From positions 1 to 43,561 of the forward strand of contig DATKRS010000026.1 in assembly GCA_035532035.1 (NCBI GenBank): a DNA stretch of 43,561 bases, given 5' to 3'. How positions within the stretch are numbered: the stretch's first letter is position 1; each line of letters opens with the position of its first letter. A program made the position numbers and the translations under genes. Origin of the DNA: Candidatus Dormiibacterota bacterium. GTDB taxonomy: Bacteria > Vulcanimicrobiota > Vulcanimicrobiia > Vulcanimicrobiales > Vulcanimicrobiaceae. Of this stretch, positions 17,433-43,560 are shown one piece after another. A model generated the notes under the pieces. It saw only the letters and a list, made by a program, of their open reading frames with translations, did no database searches and was not told the DNA's origin.

Positions 17433-17573
17433 GTGGCAGGCATCACCGTATTCAAATCACTCGCCGACGCGCTCCGCGCAGGCTACCAAGTGTACGATCG
17501 CACTTCGGATGGATATCTCGTGCGCACGCGTACCTCAGCAGGCTGGGCGATCGCCCTCGTTTCATACCGCTAA
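17433..17573 (+). CDS. small ORF (46 aa) with a perfect Shine-Dalgarno sequence, function unknown
   Basis: Absent from the ORF track. AAGGAGG (17418..17424) is followed by an 8-nt spacer and GTG, with TAA at 17571..17573. The translation is MAGITVFKSLADALRAGYQVYDRTSDGYLVRTRTSAGWAIALVSYR. It is divergent from pyrK. Confidence 0.4.
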   Translation: MAGITVFKSLADALRAGYQVYDRTSDGYLVRTRTSAGWAIALVSYR

Positions 17574-17622
17574 GTAGACTACGTCTTCATCCTCCTCGGC
17601 ATCGACCAAAAAGGCCGTCGGT

Positions 17623-18075
17623 TTATACCGGCGGCCTTTTCGGGCTTTCGCTTTCGTGGGGCTCGTATGGAGACGGATCGCGGCGCTCCATGCCATAAGG
17701 GCCAAAAGGCGTCCCCGAGCGGCCGCTCGCCGGACGCCCGCCCGCAACGAGGGAGCCCACGATCTGTGCGATCCCAACGAAGGTCGGGATGATTCCACCC
17801 AACAGCCAGGGTCCCAAAACGAAGCGACCGCCGAAGCCGTCGCCGTTATAGCCGATGAATGCGAGCCCGATCGTGAGAGCGATCCCGATGAAGGTGACGG
17901 AGATGCCGCGCCGGAGCTGGAGGTTGCCGTCGTACTGAACGGGCGGAACGTAGCCGTGGCGGATCATCTCCATCCGCTCGCGGTGCGAGAAGACCCGGAA
18001 CAGAATCACGGCGACGATCGGCAGGGCGATGACGCATACGACGGCGACGAGGGCGATGGTGGAGTCTGAATCCAT
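17623..18075 (-). CDS. small membrane protein (3 TM helices, Gly-rich; unknown function)
   Basis: ORF track 17623..18075. It has an N-terminal TM segment (IALVAVVCVIALPIVAVILF), two further Gly-rich TM segments and an acidic/Pro C-terminal tail. It is divergent from the ECF sigma gene. Confidence 0.55.
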   Translation of the reverse strand: MDSDSTIALVAVVCVIALPIVAVILFRVFSHRERMEMIRHGYVPPVQYDGNLQLRRGISVTFIGIALTIGLAFIGYNGDGFGGRFVLGPWLLGGIIPTFVGIAQIVGSLVAGGRPASGRSGTPFGPYGMERRDPSPYEPHESESPKRPPV

Positions 18076-18107
18076 AGCGTTCTAGCAGCGTGCCTCCGTT
18101 TGGAGTA

Positions 18108-18164
18108 CCTCTCTTCCCTCGGGATGTTTCGGCCCGCCCTCGAAACACCGGAGGGGAGGAGAGG
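18108..18164. repeat. long imperfect inverted repeat (about 24-nt arms, 9-nt loop) in the divergent region upstream of the ECF sigma gene
   Basis: Read directly from the sequence: CCTCTCTTCCCTCGGGATGTTTCG-gcccgccct-CGAAACACCGGAGGGGAGGAGAGG. The 3' arm contains the purine-rich SD-like tract immediately upstream of the GTG at 18176. Confidence 0.4.
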
Positions 18165-18175
18165 GTATTGAGGAC

Positions 18176-18748
18176 GTGGCGGCACTTGCGCAGCGCGCGG
18201 ATGCCGCGTTGAGCGCCGAGCTGGAGGACGGGGCTCTGGTCTCTGCGGTCTTACGTGGCGATTCCGAGGCCTTTGCGACGCTGGTCCGCCGATACGAGCG
18301 GCCGGTCTACCACCTCGCGTTCCGCACGCTGCGAGACGCTGAGGAAGCGCGCGATGTCGCACAGGAGGCATTCTTCAAGGCCTATCGCTCGCTGCGCACG
18401 TTTCGGATCGGAGCCAAGTTCTCTACGTGGATGTACTCGATCGCCTACCATGCCTGCTGCGATCGCCTGAGCCGGCGCAAGCGCTTCAGCGGCGAAGAGC
18501 TGCCTGAAAGCGCGGACCCGAGCCCCGGACCCGAGCCAACCGTCATCGCGCTCGACGAGGCGCAGCGGCTGCGCGACGCAATCGAGTTGCTGCCCGAGAA
18601 GTATCGCGTCGCGATCACGCTCTATCATCTGCAGGGGCGGCAATACGAAGAGATCGCTGCGGTGCTCGGGCTTCCGTTGGGTACGGTCAAGACGCATCTC
18701 TTTCGCGCAAAAGAACATCTTCGACGCCTGCTGGAAAGGTCTCCGTGA
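18176..18748 (+). CDS. ECF (group 4) RNA polymerase sigma-70 factor
   Basis: ORF track 18176..18748. Sigma region 2 (LVRRYERPVYHLAFRTLRDAEEARDVAQEAFFKAYRSL, FSTWMYSIAYHACCD) and region 4 (LLPEKYRVAITLYHLQGRQYEEIAAVLGLPLGTVKT) are both present. Confidence 0.9.
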   Translation: MAALAQRADAALSAELEDGALVSAVLRGDSEAFATLVRRYERPVYHLAFRTLRDAEEARDVAQEAFFKAYRSLRTFRIGAKFSTWMYSIAYHACCDRLSRRKRFSGEELPESADPSPGPEPTVIALDEAQRLRDAIELLPEKYRVAITLYHLQGRQYEEIAAVLGLPLGTVKTHLFRAKEHLRRLLERSP

Positions 18749-19096
18749 ATGAAGCTTGACGACGACGCGATCGATCGCGCGCTCGCGGCACTGCCGCTCG
18801 AGGAGGCGCCGCCTGGTCTGCATGCCGCGATTCTCGCCGGGACCGTGTATCGGCCGGCGCCGCTCTTCTCCCTCGCAGAGGTCGTCACCGCAGCGAGCGT
18901 CATCGCCGCGCTCGTGTGGGTCGCCGTCCTCATGGCTCCGCAGATCGCCGACACCGTAGCGGCTACGCTCTCGAATCTTAAGCTGCTCGCCTGGGCCGGC
19001 ACGGGCATCGCGATCGCCACATGGCTCGAGCTTTTCACGATATCCCAACCGGCGTACGCGGCCTCCCGGCGGGCAAAGGGGCACTTCGAGCCGTAA
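18749..19096 (+). CDS. putative membrane anti-sigma factor
   Basis: ORF track 18749..19096. Its ATG directly abuts the sigma-factor stop (TGAATG). It has a cytoplasmic N-terminal roughly 45 aa, then two TM helices. The call rests on context only; there is no zinc-finger motif. Confidence 0.55.
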   Translation: MKLDDDAIDRALAALPLEEAPPGLHAAILAGTVYRPAPLFSLAEVVTAASVIAALVWVAVLMAPQIADTVAATLSNLKLLAWAGTGIAIATWLELFTISQPAYAASRRAKGHFEP

Positions 19097-19104
19097 CAAA
19101 CGGC

Positions 19105-19782
19105 ATGGACAACGGACAGGCCCGGACGGTGCTGGTCGTCGAGGACGATCCGGCGATCGGTCGCGTGCTGCAGCTCGAGCTCGAGCACGAGGGGTATCGC
19201 GTCGAGATGGCCGCCGACGGGCTCAGCGGTCTGGAGAAGGCGCTCAAAGAGCCGGATCTCGTCATCCTCGATCTCATGCTTCCCCGTATGGACGGCTTCG
19301 AGCTGTGTAAGCGCTTGCGCGCGAAGAGCCGCGTTCCGATCATCATGCTCACCGCGCGCGACACCGTGCCGGATCGCGTCGCCGGCCTCGATCTCGGAGC
19401 GGATGACTATCTTACCAAGCCCTTTTCTACCGAAGAACTGCTCGCGCGCGTACGCGCCAGGCTGCGCGAGCGCGACCCGCAGTCAAACGTCATCGAGTAC
19501 CGCGACATGGTGATGGATCGCGATCGCCATGAGGTCTCACGCGCCGGCCGTCCGATCGCGCTGACCGCCAAAGAGTACGCGCTGCTCGAGTACCTGCTGC
19601 TGCACCGCAACAAAGTCCATACGCGAGACGAGTTGTTCAACGGCGTCTGGGGCAGCGACTTCCTCGGCGACTCGAATCTCATCGACGTCTACATTCGCTA
19701 TCTCCGCGGGAAGATCGACGACGACTACGACGACAAGCTCATCACGACCGTGCGCGGCGTCGGTTACACGATCAAAGATTAA
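19105..19782 (+). CDS. OmpR/PhoB-family response regulator
   Basis: Track ORF 19021..19782. The receiver domain starts at MDNGQARTVLVVEDD (ATG 19105, 9 nt after the anti-sigma stop). The phospho-acceptor D is in LVILDLMLP, and there is a C-terminal winged-helix (TAKEYALLEYLL, VRGVGYTIKD). Confidence 0.9.
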   Translation: MDNGQARTVLVVEDDPAIGRVLQLELEHEGYRVEMAADGLSGLEKALKEPDLVILDLMLPRMDGFELCKRLRAKSRVPIIMLTARDTVPDRVAGLDLGADDYLTKPFSTEELLARVRARLRERDPQSNVIEYRDMVMDRDRHEVSRAGRPIALTAKEYALLEYLLLHRNKVHTRDELFNGVWGSDFLGDSNLIDVYIRYLRGKIDDDYDDKLITTVRGVGYTIKD

Positions 19783-19788
19783 GGAACC

Positions 19789-22209
19789 TTGAACGTCCGT
19801 TCCGATAGCCTTCGCTGGAAGATCGCCGCGTGGTACGCGACGCTTCTCGTGGTCGTGCTCGCTACGACGAGCGGCGTTCTCGTCTGGCGCTTCGGCAGCA
19901 TCATCTACGCACAAGCGCGCGAGCGCGCGAATGCGACGATGGACGAGGTCTTGGCCGTCGCAAACCCGGTTGGCGCACCGCTCGGCCTGCAGGACGTCGC
20001 CTCCAACACGACGCCGCTGCAGGTGCTTCTCAACAGCGACAACCTCGTCTATTGGACCTCGCCCGAGTCGGCGATCGAGATCGACACCCCGGCCGGCTAC
20101 CCGATGGTGAAAACGCCGAATCTGGGTGCGGGGCGCATACCGCCCGCGCCTGTCGACGCCGCGCACCCGGTCGCCTTCCGCGATGCTCAGGTACGCGGTC
20201 AGCCCGCCATCGTCGCCGCGCACTTCGTGCGCGTCGGCGGCACGACCAACGTCGTGGTGCAAGTCGCGCAGTCGCTTGCGACGGTCTCGCACGCGATCGA
20301 CGAAGCGCGCCGAACGGTCGTGCTCGTTCTCGCCGCGGCGATCGCGGCGGTCGTCGCGCTCTCACTCGTTCTCGCATCGCAGGCGATCAACCCGATCAAC
20401 GAGCTCTCGCGCGCGATGCGCGAGATCGGCTTCGAGCGACTCGGACGCCGCCTCAACTGGCCTCGACGGGACGAAATCGGCGCGCTCGCGGAGTCGTTCG
20501 ACGATCTCCTCGCGCGCCTCGAAGCCTCCTTCTCACGCGAGCGGCAGTTCATCTCCGATGCATCGCACGAGCTCAAGACGCCGCTCACCTCGATCAACGC
20601 CAACGCGCAGATGCTGTTGCGCTGGGCGGAGCGCAACGAAGGCGTGCGCCGGGAGAGCCTGGAGACGATCGCGCACGAGAGCTCGTCTCTCGGCGAGATG
20701 GTCAACGGCATGCTCACGCTCGCGAAGGCGGATCGCGGCGACGATATTCCCAAAGAGCCGGTCTCGTTGATCGAAGAGGCGAGGGAGGTCGTGCGACACG
20801 CCGCGCCGCGCGCTCGCGAGAAGGGCCTGACGCTCACGTTCGTGCCGAAGAGCGACTCCGCCATCGTGTTCGCGGAGCCGCATTTGATTCGCCAGATGAT
20901 CGGGAACCTCGTCGACAACGCGATCAAGTTCACGGACGCGGGCGGCGTCGACGTTCTCGTCGGCGCCGAGGACGGCACGGGTTGGCTCGAGGTTCGCGAC
21001 ACCGGGCCGGGGATCGGCGAGCGCGATCTGCCACGCATATTCGAGCGTTTCTACCGGGCGGACCGCTCCCGTTCGCGTAGCGTCCCCGGCACCGGCTTGG
21101 GCCTCGCGATCGTACGTTCGATCGCGCGCGCCCACGACGGGAACGTCGACGCGCAGCGCAGCGCGAGCGGCGGCAGTCTCTTCCGCGTTACGATCCCACT
21201 CCTGGCGTTGCTTGCAGGCCTCTTCTGCTTCTCGCCGCCGGCAATTGCGCGCGCCGACGAGATTGCGGTGAGCGCGAGCCCCGTCGTCAACGTCATGCTT
21301 GCAAACGGCAACCTCACGATCACGACGTGGAACCGTTCCGAGATTCGCGTCGTCACGGACAAGCGCGTCGACTGGAAGCGCTTCGACACGCGCCAAACGG
21401 CACCGCGGATCCCCTCGGAGATCAACTCGTGGGCCGTCACGGTCTCCACGCCGCGCGGTCCCGCGTTTCTTCCGGCTGAAACGTTCATGCTGCCTGCATT
21501 TGCGCCAGGTCCGCACGATGCCGTCTCCATGCAAGGATTCGGAGATACGACGATCACCGTCCCGTCGCGGGCGGCGCTCGTCATCGCCCGCGTGATCGCC
21601 GGCACGATAACGGTGCGCGGGTATCACGGCGTTCTCGTCGCTCACGTTCGGCGAGGCGCGATGCGGTTCGTCGGTTTTCGCGGGACGGCGTACGCGCAAG
21701 TCGTCGCCGGCCGCATTATCGCCGTCGACTCTTCCTTCGACCGCCTGCGCGCGCGGACGGCGAACGGCAATCTCCTTTTCGAAGCGTGCCGTTCGCGGCA
21801 GATTGACGTAACCGCGATTCACGGCGCTATTCTGTACGACGACGGAGCGTTCGCGGAGGGACCGGCGTACTTCTCGACCGGCGAAGGCGCGGTGGCCATC
21901 GGCGTCGTCGGCAGCGGCCTCACGCTCAGCGGCCATAGTGCGAACGGCGACGTCATGCTTGGTTTCGGGCCTCAAGCAACGGTGCGCCGGCGCGGCGGAA
22001 GCGTCGTGGTCAACCTCGGTGGAGGGGGCGCGTTCGTCAGCGCTCAGGCACCGGGTCTCGTCGCTCTCTACCACGGTAGGCTTGCAGAGCACAGGCGGAT
22101 CCTCGCGCGCCTAGGCTTCGCACGCTTCGCGCCGATAGCTTCCTTTAGAGGGTCGCCGCCTCGGTCTCGACCTCGAGGTCGACGATCATCCCGTCGTCCG
22201 CCGCGATAG
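19789..22209 (+). CDS. sensor histidine kinase fused to a C-terminal transmembrane helix and a DUF4097-like beta-helical domain
   Basis: ORF track 19789..22209 (806 aa) is one uninterrupted frame. Residues 1-465 have TM1, a periplasmic loop, TM2, HAMP, HisKA (ISDASHELKTPLTS) and HATPase_c (GNLVDNAIKF, GTGLGLAIV) regions. Residues 471-486 are hydrophobic (LLALLAGLFCFSPPAIA). Residues 487-780 carry a repetitive G-x-I/V-x-V beta-strand pattern, and the tail is Arg-rich. Confidence 0.8.
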   Translation: MNVRSDSLRWKIAAWYATLLVVVLATTSGVLVWRFGSIIYAQARERANATMDEVLAVANPVGAPLGLQDVASNTTPLQVLLNSDNLVYWTSPESAIEIDTPAGYPMVKTPNLGAGRIPPAPVDAAHPVAFRDAQVRGQPAIVAAHFVRVGGTTNVVVQVAQSLATVSHAIDEARRTVVLVLAAAIAAVVALSLVLASQAINPINELSRAMREIGFERLGRRLNWPRRDEIGALAESFDDLLARLEASFSRERQFISDASHELKTPLTSINANAQMLLRWAERNEGVRRESLETIAHESSSLGEMVNGMLTLAKADRGDDIPKEPVSLIEEAREVVRHAAPRAREKGLTLTFVPKSDSAIVFAEPHLIRQMIGNLVDNAIKFTDAGGVDVLVGAEDGTGWLEVRDTGPGIGERDLPRIFERFYRADRSRSRSVPGTGLGLAIVRSIARAHDGNVDAQRSASGGSLFRVTIPLLALLAGLFCFSPPAIARADEIAVSASPVVNVMLANGNLTITTWNRSEIRVVTDKRVDWKRFDTRQTAPRIPSEINSWAVTVSTPRGPAFLPAETFMLPAFAPGPHDAVSMQGFGDTTITVPSRAALVIARVIAGTITVRGYHGVLVAHVRRGAMRFVGFRGTAYAQVVAGRIIAVDSSFDRLRARTANGNLLFEACRSRQIDVTAIHGAILYDDGAFAEGPAYFSTGEGAVAIGVVGSGLTLSGHSANGDVMLGFGPQATVRRRGGSVVVNLGGGGAFVSAQAPGLVALYHGRLAEHRRILARLGFARFAPIASFRGSPPRSRPRGRRSSRRPPR

Positions 22210-22939
22210 CGCGCAGCCCGAGGCGATCTTCCACCTCCTGCGCGAGCACCGCGGGATCGCGTTCGAGCATCTTCGTTCCAAAGTGCGCAAAGACCACGAC
22301 CTTGGGCTGTACGGTCTCGACGATGCGCTGCGCGTCGTCCCACGCCAGATGATCCACGTCCATGCCGTCTCGAAAGCGCAGGACGTTGATGACCAAGACG
22401 TCCGGACGGCGACGCGCGTAATCTTCGGCGAGTCCTTCGAAGAAACGTCCACACGGCAGATAGGCGACGCGCAATCCTTCGTACGCGAAGTGAAATCCGT
22501 ATGTCTGCGCGGCGTGCACGTGCGCGATCGACGTGAAGACCTCGACGGCGCCGACGCGATAGGGGCCCGCGTCTGCGTCCAGGGCCACGACGCGTTCGAC
22601 GAACTCCTGCGCGTACGGGAGAACGACCGGTTCGCCCTCGAGTGCGTCGCGCGGCGCGAGAACGGCCCCACGCTTGCGATGGCCGCCCGCGGTCATCGCC
22701 TCGATCATGACGTTCACGTCGCCCGAATGGTCAAGGTGCTTGTGCGAAAGGAGAATCCCGTCGAGTTCGCGCGGGTTGCACGGCGGCACGTGCGTCAGCG
22801 CACGCACGAGCGCACCCGGTCCGGGGTCGACGTGGAGCTGCGTCTGGCCGAAGCGCATCCACATGCCGCCCGACGCGCGCAGCTGCCGCGCGACGACGAA
22901 GCGGGCACCGCCGCTCCCCAGGAAGAGAATCGAGCTCAC
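22145..22939 (-). CDS. MBL-fold metallo-hydrolase
   Basis: Track ORF 22145..23158. It carries the HxHxDH motif (HKHLDHSGD) and a conserved N-terminus (ILFLGSGGA). I trimmed the start to the GTG at 22939, preceded by the DUF1501 stop at 22953. The upstream 73 aa are an artefact. Confidence 0.7.
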   Translation of the reverse strand: MSSILFLGSGGARFVVARQLRASGGMWMRFGQTQLHVDPGPGALVRALTHVPPCNPRELDGILLSHKHLDHSGDVNVMIEAMTAGGHRKRGAVLAPRDALEGEPVVLPYAQEFVERVVALDADAGPYRVGAVEVFTSIAHVHAAQTYGFHFAYEGLRVAYLPCGRFFEGLAEDYARRRPDVLVINVLRFRDGMDVDHLAWDDAQRIVETVQPKVVVFAHFGTKMLERDPAVLAQEVEDRLGLRAIAADDGMIVDLEVETEAATL

Positions 22940-43484: not shown

Positions 43485-43560
43485 GGGGATGTAGCTCAGC
43501 TGGTAGAGCACTTGCTTCGCATGTAAGGGGTCAGGGGTTCGAGTCCCCTCATCTCCACCA
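43485..43560 (+). tRNA. tRNA-Ala (anticodon CGC)
   Basis: The fold is a cloverleaf: acceptor stem GGGGATG/CATCTCC with the G3:U70 Ala identity pair; D-arm GCTC/GAGC; anticodon stem CTTGC/GTAAG with loop TTCGCAT (anticodon CGC); T-arm AGGGG-TTCGAGT-CCCCT; discriminator A; encoded CCA. Confidence 0.9.

Follow-up and report, generated by a model that had tools for sequence, protein, structure and literature searches.

Does the histidine kinase gene of a bacterial envelope-signalling locus really encode, behind its catalytic domain, a further domain that would have to lie on the other side of the membrane, and, if so, how did such a protein arise? The locus occupies positions 17,623 to 22,209 of a 43,561-nt stretch (contig DATKRS010000026.1, assembly GCA_035532035.1), the whole of which is referred to below as the window. 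It encodes an extracytoplasmic function (ECF) sigma factor, a small anti-sigma-like membrane protein, an OmpR-type response regulator (RR) and the kinase, with a divergently transcribed membrane protein gene upstream. The initial annotation had described a kinase open reading frame (ORF) that continues without interruption past the HATPase domain into a beta-helical domain of the DUF4097 type, which in related systems is a separate protein, and both parts of this description held. The kinase and the Toastrack (DUF4097-related) domain are encoded by one gene, and this fusion is real, conserved and recurrent. As an overall explanation, we consider it probable that this is a Vulcanimicrobiota envelope-signalling locus in which a deletion made the kinase-Toastrack fusion and in which the Toastrack domain is exported.

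The kinase-Toastrack gene

The gene is composed of the following parts.

19789..22209, + strand: histidine kinase-Toastrack fusion gene, 806 amino acids (aa) plus stop codon, delimited by Pfam domains, a single coding frame and identical contigs
19828..20379, + strand: first transmembrane (TM) helix, TM1 (aa 14-35), extracytoplasmic sensor domain of mixed alpha/beta type (aa 36-176) and TM2 (aa 177-197), from hydropathy
20371..21201, + strand: cytoplasmic transmitter with HAMP (aa 195-246, Pfam E 2.5e-8), HisKA (aa 251-317, E 4.3e-17) and HATPase_c (aa 365-471, E 3e-28), all above their cut-offs
21199..21255, + strand: internal signal-peptide-like segment (aa 471-489) with h-region LLALLAGLFCF and c-region SPPAIARA, aligning with the signal peptides of stand-alone homologues
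21256..22098, + strand: Toastrack (DUF4097-related) single-stranded beta-helix domain (aa 490-770)
22099..22206, + strand: Arg/Pro-rich basic tail (aa 771-806), modelled with low confidence (predicted local distance difference test, pLDDT, about 40-60)

The first part of the protein is a HisKA-type transmembrane sensor kinase, in which two TM helices placed around an outer sensor domain precede HAMP, HisKA and HATPase_c, and the phospho-acceptor His260 lies within an SHELKTP motif (259-265). The sensor region matches 2CSK_N weakly and under the cut-off (E 1.8e-4), and long helices at residues 8-58 and 164-198 of a full-length AlphaFold2 (AF2) model correspond to the TM1 and TM2 regions. No NCBIfam equivalog cut-off was reached by the kinase, the best model being that of the heavy-metal sensor subfamily (226.7 versus 292.55). 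Basic, mostly Arg-rich C-terminal tails were present in the inspected fused and stand-alone sequences alike.

The source is a metagenome-assembled genome (MAG), and clearly frameshifted calls of the same locus exist in other assemblies (the long entries P0083, P0110, P0111, P0084 and P0090, which are out-of-frame junk and were discarded from the fused set). The long frame might accordingly reflect a stop codon or frameshift missed through assembly error, or a recent, functionless accident of the pseudogene kind. Against this, the GC content of third codon positions (GC3) remains at 0.72-0.92 in one frame from the first to the last of the 806 codons, and the other two frames contain stops near the junction; neither a stop nor a frameshift was found at the junction, and no frameshift is hidden in the window's copy. 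The protein is 100% identical to an 806-aa product found on three contigs. Two independent ENA assemblies, with 2-3 single-nucleotide differences from the window elsewhere in 10.4 kb, contain exactly the same junction DNA, as does a relative that is 84-88% identical. Clustered at the 90% identity level, the 120 best relatives of the full-length protein include 15 fused clusters, with lengths of 775-836 aa, identities from 88% to 41% and coverage of the whole query, and an exhaustive hidden Markov model (HMM) search added a sixteenth, P0099. The orthologous fusions proposed as a check on the kinase architecture thus exist, and they come from NCBI, JGI, ENA and Logan assemblies with the domains intact on both sides of a junction that is conserved over divergence down to 64%. 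A genome-contig search with the single protein found one further locus, again fused, in a GTDB representative MAG labelled Vulcanimicrobiota. Together with the confidently modelled fold of the C-terminal domain (see below), these observations largely refute an artefact, which we regard as extremely improbable.

The named close relatives belong mostly to Vulcanimicrobiota (Ca. Tyrphobacter, Baltobacteraceae, Tumulicola), with a few more distant ones under other MAG labels. This phylum, formerly Eremiobacterota or WPS-2, has few cultured members, and the group with the fusion consists of uncultured soil bacteria. An identical protein (P0152) is labelled 'Candidatus Dormibacteraeota bacterium' at NCBI, a label that looks wrong or outdated.

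Identity of the C-terminal domain

Another question is to which family the additional domain belongs. No Pfam family was found for aa 471-806 even at E<=10, or for the C-terminal part of the full protein at E<=1, and an NCBIfam scan of the C-terminal 336 aa returned nothing. A word-indexed homologue search gave 1 and then 14 relatives, and an exhaustive HMM search was required. A two-sequence profile (A1, consisting of the window domain and one homologue from the word index) run against 1.84 billion proteins retrieved 227 clusters formed at 50% identity with E<=1e-3, of which 100 reach E<=1e-30. The weak tail of this search (E 5e-9 to 4e-6) consists of canonical DUF4097 proteins, eight of ten tested passing the PF13349 cut-off, and 28 of 62 aligned family members match PF13349 (Toastrack, DUF4097), with a best E of 2.6e-10. 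Two stand-alone relatives are named 'DUF4097 family beta strand repeat-containing protein' by NCBI. The window domain's own family, with conserved motifs such as DSSFDRLRART, is seen mostly in MAGs labelled Vulcanimicrobiota.

An AF2 model of the domain built on the family alignment is almost entirely beta and of high confidence (pLDDT 92.5, predicted TM-score, pTM, 0.87), and the top structure found for it by Foldseek is 4qrk; 4QRK and 4OPW are the reference structures that define Toastrack (PMC11237479). The closest solved structures also include a lipoprotein and putative adhesins (3jx8, 3ljy, 3pet) and the DUF2807 protein in a map of the Legionella Dot/Icm type IV secretion system (7muc). 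Because homology is transitive through intermediate sequences and the fold agrees, Toastrack identity is established despite the missing direct Pfam match: judged by sequence and model, the domain is a divergent member of the Toastrack superfamily, larger by about 100 residues. The DUF4097-like assignment of the initial annotation was therefore upheld by this indirect route, whereas the direct HMM match, whose absence had been named as a reason to abandon it, was not obtained.

Origin and recurrence of the fusion

How could a kinase acquire such a domain? Across the phylum, the orthologous loci share one layout: pyrD/pyrK, a DUF6249 gene on the minus strand, then, on the plus strand, the sigma factor, anti-sigma-like, RR and kinase genes, and after these a convergent gene of the metallo-beta-lactamase (MBL) fold. 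In five loci (L001, L002, L005, L009 and L010, the first covering only the C-terminal part of the kinase), the kinase is unfused and 471-479 aa long, and a Toastrack-family gene lies directly downstream on the same strand; the four longer loci also contain the genes for the sigma factor, anti-sigma-like protein, RR and DUF6249 protein, with the pyr genes upstream. The downstream genes of L001, L002 and L005 match the family HMM at E 7e-92 to 8e-131, and those of L009 and L010 were assigned to the family by position and alignment. The stand-alone gene often overlaps the kinase by ATGA or trails it by a short gap, which is 35 nt in L002 (from the likely start) and about 55 nt in L010 (from the called start).

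Of 61 stand-alone members, 57 have a hydrophobic 12-mer within the first 70 residues, in most cases preceded by Lys/Arg and followed by a c-region of small residues. The N-terminus in L002 reads MTSGRARALFFLACCFVALQANARA|QD and that in L009 reads ..ALARGAAALLFAFAVAAASGQARA|DD. When fused and unfused loci are aligned at the DNA level, both flanks are conserved, namely, ATCCCGCTGCTCGCG at the kinase end (I-P-L-L-A) and GCGCGCGCCGACGA in the c-region (A-R-A-D-D/E), while ~100 nt between them are missing from the fused forms. What is missing extends from the kinase tail and stop codon across the spacer to the start codon of the downstream gene and the n-region of its signal peptide. Since the alignment keeps both flanks and loses what lay between them, the putative third TM helix of the initial annotation is, by this comparison, the h-region of the former signal peptide of a once-separate gene. 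In the ancestral state, an exported Toastrack protein with its own N-terminal signal sequence would have been encoded right after the kinase. A short deletion would then have taken away the end of the kinase gene (its last ~10 codons and the stop), the spacer between the genes and the n-region, joining the cytoplasmic C-terminus of the kinase (..FRVTIPLL) straight to the h-region.

A neighbour-joining tree built from the kinase part unites 13 fused clusters in a single clade, whose sister group consists of the unfused kinases P0164, P0165 and P0167 (P0164 being labelled Ca. Tyrphobacter), which are 73-76% identical to the window kinase. The fused P0006, P0177 and P0099 are placed apart from this clade, within or outside the set of more than 100 unfused kinases. 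The junction residues differ between fused lineages (P|LL.., P|ALI.., P|RLV.. and P|RAA..), and these differences, taken with the separate branches, suggest about four independent fusions, a number that is provisional. As the two genes are linked in 5/5 unfused loci and have been fused repeatedly, there is strong genetic evidence, of the Rosetta-stone kind, that the kinase and the Toastrack protein act together.

A second divergent gene, encoding a TM-anchored canonical DUF4097 protein of 269-272 aa, lies between the DUF6249 and sigma factor genes in L002 (3428..4246, minus strand) and L005 (2107..2916, minus strand), and a tblastn search detected no copy of it in the window. A link between the loss of this gene and the fusion fitted the comparison of the window, L003 and L004 with L002 and L005; it was rejected, as the unfused L009 and L010 lack the gene too.

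Predicted export, topology and possible cleavage

The next question is on which side of the membrane the domain lies, and whether it stays attached. Residues 471-489 show the features of a Sec signal peptide: an h-region within the usual 7-15 residues (here 11, aa 471-481), a helix breaker, small residues at -3/-1 and homology to N-terminal signal peptides. The h-region is followed by SPPAIARA|DE, and a signal peptidase I site is predicted after A489 (or A487). Because a signal sequence is already oriented N-in/C-out and the kinase ends in the cytoplasm, the fusion would be topologically neutral. Acting as an export signal from an internal position, the segment would carry the Toastrack domain to the outside of the membrane, where the ~140-aa sensor domain of the kinase also lies. 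From these features, the domain is almost certainly exported, and it would most likely act as an accessory sensor or as a regulator or inhibitor of the kinase, by a logic analogous to that of LiaF/VraT, CseA and CpxP. The proposal of a third TM helix with the domain outside the cell is thus supported as regards the location, which the hydrophobic segment itself indicates; the segment appears to be a signal-peptide remnant, and a stable three-TM topology does not follow from it.

Cleavage is made plausible by the retention of a Pro-rich c-region and an A-x-A motif. ARA is kept in 12 of the 13 main-clade fused clusters, while the h-region drifts freely. In the full-length AF2 model, which has a pTM of 0.54 and is uninformative on contact between the sensor and Toastrack domains, the junction segment forms a helix of only nine residues (472-480), with pLDDT <50 over residues 477-486. 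The short h-region, the proline, the conserved A-x-A and this weak helix are the reasons why the fusion may be cleaved, and we regard it as a matter of roughly equal chances whether signal peptidase I cuts the precursor. Cleavage would leave the kinase with a membrane stub at its C-terminus and release the Toastrack protein, starting DEIAVSASPVVNVMLANGNLTITTWNR, in equal (1:1) amounts, and the unusual topology may then be transient.

The alternative of a stable, uncleaved third helix (TM-sensor-TM-kinase-TM-Toastrack), with a tethered outer domain that signals to or restrains the catalytic or sensor domain, is a serious possibility that falls somewhat short of an even chance. The conservation of the fusion in 13 clusters to ~64% identity and its repeated origin imply some advantage of covalent linkage or strict co-expression. 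In addition, a bilayer could just be crossed by the 17-19 residues from L471 to A489, and stand-alone homologues often have long conserved n-regions, which are typical of signal anchors. The h-region of only ~11 residues, the Ser-Pro-Pro and canonical A-x-A behind it, the retention of ARA beside a drifting h-region and the short, low-confidence AF2 helix all speak for a cleavable signal instead. Much less probable is that the fused ORF yields two proteins, the Toastrack domain being translated anew from codon 474, so that the fusion would be only formal. The window has TTG at this codon, L003 and several relatives have ATG, and the aligned residue is Met or Leu in 12 of the 13 main-clade clusters; yet the preceding 18 nt contain no Shine-Dalgarno-like sequence, a protein started there would lack a positively charged n-region, its first residue lying within the h-region, and nothing prevents ribosomes that translate the kinase from reading through. 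We consider even less probable a cytoplasmic Toastrack domain, with the hydrophobic stretch as a membrane-associated linker and the domain as a sub-membrane scaffold on the kinase. It would agree with the general prediction for Toastrack domains, but stand-alone members begin with signal-peptide-like sequences, the closest structures include a lipoprotein and putative adhesins, all of which are expected to be exported, and the DUF2807 protein of 7muc, and the positive charge (R457, R466) is on the N-terminal side of the segment.

Several points weigh against the favoured explanation, that is, a fusion made by deletion with an exported Toastrack domain. Ravi et al. 2024 predict Toastrack domains to be generally intracellular (PMC11237479), the window's own domain reaches no Pfam threshold, and the neighbour-joining tree carries no support values. 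About one-third of the stand-alone homologues have an n-region of ~20 aa with a motif Y-[NDHT]-[RE]-x-[VM] ~10 residues before the hydrophobic segment (examples of this Y-x-R-x-V motif are P0001, P0002, P0014, P0027, P0049 and L009 5431-5500), which would be more typical of a signal anchor that stays uncleaved than of a signal peptide that is removed. If a signal anchor was retained, ARA could be inherited rather than selected. The long n-region also suggests a functional cytoplasmic N-tail, perhaps in contact with the kinase; in the fused forms, this conserved region is deleted.

Candidate promoters and other genes of the locus

All five ORFs of the initial annotation are present in the ORF list of the window at the same coordinates. 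The remaining features of the locus are as follows.

17606..17643, no strand assigned: GC-rich hairpin where the DUF6249 gene ends, probably a terminator, with 17-nt arms (88% complementary) and a 4-nt loop
17623..18075, - strand: DUF6249 membrane protein, 150 aa, with three hydrophobic segments by hydropathy (Pfam PF19762, E 2.2e-10, 40.9 bits versus a cut-off of 33)
18106..18130, - strand: candidate ECF-type promoter GAAAC-N16-GGTA directed toward the DUF6249 gene, from a motif match
18108..18164, no strand assigned: the 'long palindrome', made up of two -35 boxes (TGTTTC / GAAACA) and the partly symmetric spacers of a divergent promoter pair
18142..18167, + strand: candidate ECF-type promoter GAAAC-N17-GGTA for the sigma operon, from a motif match
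18176..18748, + strand: ECF sigma factor, 190 aa (Sigma70_r2, E 2.1e-18; Sigma70_r4_2, E 5.9e-19)
18749..19096, + strand: anti-sigma-like membrane protein, 115 aa, starting directly after the sigma stop codon
19105..19782, + strand: OmpR-family RR, 225 aa from the likely start (Response_reg, E 1.3e-31; Trans_reg_C, E 2.4e-26)

The inverted repeat noted in the shared upstream region is real, with 24-nt arms (18108-18131 pairing with 18141-18164) of 75% complementarity around a 9-nt loop, and it is probably a bidirectional pair of ECF-type promoters, two divergent elements rather than a single one. The only two matches to GAAAC-N15-18-SGTA in the window stand back to back in this 100-nt intergenic region. 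A count of two, compared with 1.05 expected, is by itself insignificant, and the promoter interpretation rests on position, orientation and conservation: an outward-facing motif pair is found upstream of the sigma gene in L002-L005, and between loci only the GAAAC and (C/G)GTA blocks are conserved, the spacers not. The consensus of Bacillus subtilis sigmaW promoters is TGAAAC-N16-CGTA (PMC5758882). An RNA hairpin hiding the ribosome-binding site of the sigma gene was considered and rejected; its minimum free energy is -42.3 kcal/mol, but the promoter pair is preferred because z is only -2.1 and the spacers are unconserved. Between 17400 and 22400, no sigma-70-type promoter was found, and no terminator-like site lies within or between the five plus-strand genes. 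The sigma, anti-sigma-like, RR and kinase genes apparently form one operon. The promoter pair would let this operon, with its kinase-Toastrack gene, be autoregulated and would co-induce the DUF6249 gene. Only 8 nt separate the end of the putative plus-strand -10 element (GGTA) from the GTG codon, itself conserved, at which the sigma gene starts; its mRNA may therefore be leaderless or nearly so.

The sigma factor is of the ECF type (group 4), with regions 2 and 4 only (TIGR02937, 111.5 bits versus a cut-off of 42.9), and the best gene-named models for it are SigW and SigM, both under their cut-offs. The 115-aa product of the next gene has no Pfam or NCBIfam family, and its best match is PRK13920, 'putative anti-sigmaE' (E 0.13). 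Its N-terminal segment of ~36 aa, taken to be cytoplasmic, is conserved across five loci and its membrane part is variable; hydropathy gives one 19-residue peak (aa 45-63), and a second TM segment at about aa 78-98 comes from reading the sequence only. Position, topology and the conserved N-terminal 36 aa fit a short anti-sigma-like protein. The RR ORF spans 19021..19782, and 19105 is most likely the true start because the gene call in identical contigs begins there.

The DUF6249 gene is transcribed divergently from the sigma operon, and its product agrees with the small three-TM protein of the initial annotation. It occupies the same position in L002-L005, L009 and L010, that is, in every orthologous locus covering that side, and a terminator-like site (17633-17646) lies near its 3' end. 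In Bacteroides fragilis, a DUF6249 gene is reported to adjoin an RNA polymerase sigma factor gene in the clsB neighbourhood (bioRxiv 10.1101/2025.05.12.653583), which hints that the association of DUF6249 with ECF sigma factors is broader than this locus. Between pyrK and the DUF6249 gene, a 46-aa ORF (17433..17570, plus strand) is 89% identical to a 46-aa gene of L002 (2659..2799), which makes it much better conserved than the neighbouring DUF6249 gene (52%); a 46-aa gene is called at the corresponding position in L005 too.

On the other side, the last 65 nt of the kinase-Toastrack ORF (22145..22209), which encode part of the Arg/Pro-rich tail of low model confidence, also belong to the convergent MBL-fold gene (Lactamase_B_2, 22145..22939, minus strand), at its 3' end. 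Similar overlaps of 14-122 nt occur in the fused L003, L004 and L008; the stand-alone Toastrack gene overlaps the MBL-fold gene by 41-62 nt in the unfused L009 and L010 and not at all in L002. The only tRNA gene found, for tRNA-Ala (CGC), lies at the end of the window (43485..43560, plus strand).

Comparison with known systems

The initial annotation had compared the module with the sigE-cseABC locus of Streptomyces. The parallel with sigE-cseA-cseB-cseC of Streptomyces coelicolor holds for gene order, with an ECF sigma factor, a small gene, an OmpR-type RR and a HisKA kinase in succession, and fails in several other respects. The RR scores 192.2 bits against the CseB equivalog NF041733 (cut-off 350), less than against MtrA and heavy-metal RR models, and the sigma factor scores 88.9 bits against the SigE-family model TIGR02983 (SigE-fam_strep; cut-off 141.55). 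CseA is an extracytoplasmic accessory protein that modulates the kinase, and it is not a Toastrack protein. The second gene here encodes an anti-sigma-like membrane protein and not a CseA-type lipoprotein: no N-terminal signal peptide or lipobox Cys was found in the 115-aa product, in which a hydrophilic conserved N-terminus of 36-44 aa precedes the first TM segment. The promoter logic differs as well. In Streptomyces, sigE is driven by CseB, without an anti-sigma factor, while the apparently ECF-dependent promoters of the present locus point to autoregulation and not to expression driven by CseB.

SigmaW/RsiW of B. subtilis is similar in its promoter (TGAAAC-N16-CGTA, PMC5758882, compared with GAAAC-N16-17-(C/G)GTA here), in the SigW models being among the best-scoring named models for the sigma factor and in its autoregulated sigma/anti-sigma operon. 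It differs in that the window sigma factor stays under the SigW equivalog cut-offs (138 versus 209 and 127 versus 243), the anti-sigma-like protein lacks a zinc-binding anti-sigma domain and similarity to RsiW, and a two-component system is embedded in the operon here.

A LiaFSR-type relation, also suggested earlier, could not be maintained as membership. In those systems, LiaF restrains LiaS. The likeness to LiaFSR/VraTSR of Firmicutes lies in the pairing of a two-component kinase with an operon-encoded Toastrack accessory (LiaF, DUF2154; LiaG, DUF4097) (PMC11237479). LiaS is an intramembrane-sensing HisKA_3 kinase and LiaR is of the NarL type, whereas the window kinase is HisKA (E 4.3e-17, versus 0.49 for HisKA_3) with a ~140-aa outer sensor domain, and its RR is OmpR-type, with Trans_reg_C and not GerE. 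LiaF combines a 4-TM N-terminal domain with a Toastrack domain for which a cytoplasmic location is predicted. In the present case, the Toastrack domain stands behind a signal peptide and is part of the kinase polypeptide; a single hydrophobic segment leads into it in the fused form and, at the N-terminus, in the stand-alone homologues, and no LiaI-LiaF 4-TM domain is present. LiaI and PspA genes are absent from this locus, which has an ECF sigma factor gene. LiaG/YvlB of B. subtilis and the 'putative adhesins' of Bacteroides (3pet, 3ljy, 3jx8, 4qrk), which are membrane-anchored or lipoprotein Toastrack proteins, have only 8-16% identity to the window domain, which is ~100 residues larger and belongs to a distinct family, and they are not fused to kinases.

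The closest analogues in terms of architecture are polyproteins with internal signal peptides. The Bradyrhizobium cytochrome b-c1 precursor FbcH is processed at such a site. As in the present fusion, the signal peptide of an exported downstream protein connects it to an upstream protein that ends in the cytoplasm. In the FbcH precursor, signal peptidase then cuts the two apart, and the signal peptide stays behind as a C-terminal anchor of the upstream protein. The hepatitis C virus (HCV) core-E1 precursor is also processed in this way (PMC5402940). Processing has been demonstrated for FbcH and HCV core-E1 and is inferred here. We know of no such internal-signal-peptide polyprotein for a two-component sensor kinase.

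Ravi et al. 2024 catalogue Toastrack contexts and list histidine-kinase fusions to PspC (PMC11237479); the available portion of its text and supplement contains no kinase-Toastrack fusion and no domain fused after HISKIN. Literature on DUF4097 with sensor kinases, on C-terminal TM segments with HATPase and on Eremiobacterota two-component systems yielded nothing relevant, and no published kinase was found in which an exported domain follows HATPase_c, the coverage of the literature being incomplete. Within this coverage, the earlier statement that the architecture is undescribed remains valid.

Significance

The fusion is previously undescribed, while the system itself, a two-component system with a Toastrack accessory in an ECF-controlled envelope locus, is not categorically new. 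To our knowledge, a topology in which an exported domain is placed after the catalytic domain has not been described for histidine kinases. A new sensor-kinase design, whose accessory sensing module would be attached covalently behind the catalytic domain and pass back through the membrane, in uncleaved or cleaved form, is possible but doubtful. In the uncleaved form, a three-TM kinase would have its outer Toastrack domain contact the sensor domain or pull the catalytic and ATP-binding (CA) domain through the third helix. In the cleaved form, the protein would be a kinase/accessory 'polyprotein' that signal peptidase divides, and two-component signalling would gain its first precursor of this kind.

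The gene arrangement permits fusion: as the upstream protein ends in the cytoplasm and the downstream one starts with a signal peptide, one small deletion can give a multi-domain membrane protein of viable topology. The locus also represents a compact model, with a sigma factor, an anti-sigma-like protein, an RR, a kinase-Toastrack protein and a target gene with candidate paired promoters. Toastrack (DUF4097/DUF2154/DUF2807) proteins recur beside envelope-stress regulators, as with LiaF, LiaG, VraT and PspC partners, and the present locus bears on how they work and on which side of the membrane they act. A signal-peptide-bearing Toastrack family that is linked to one orthologous kinase across a phylum and was fused to it several times points to a direct, stoichiometric partnership outside the cytoplasm. 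Should the new design be true in either form, the approximately four independent fusions would prove, in the Rosetta-stone sense, a direct partnership of extracytoplasmic Toastrack proteins with histidine kinases, and the view of Toastrack as acting under the membrane, inside the cell, would be extended.

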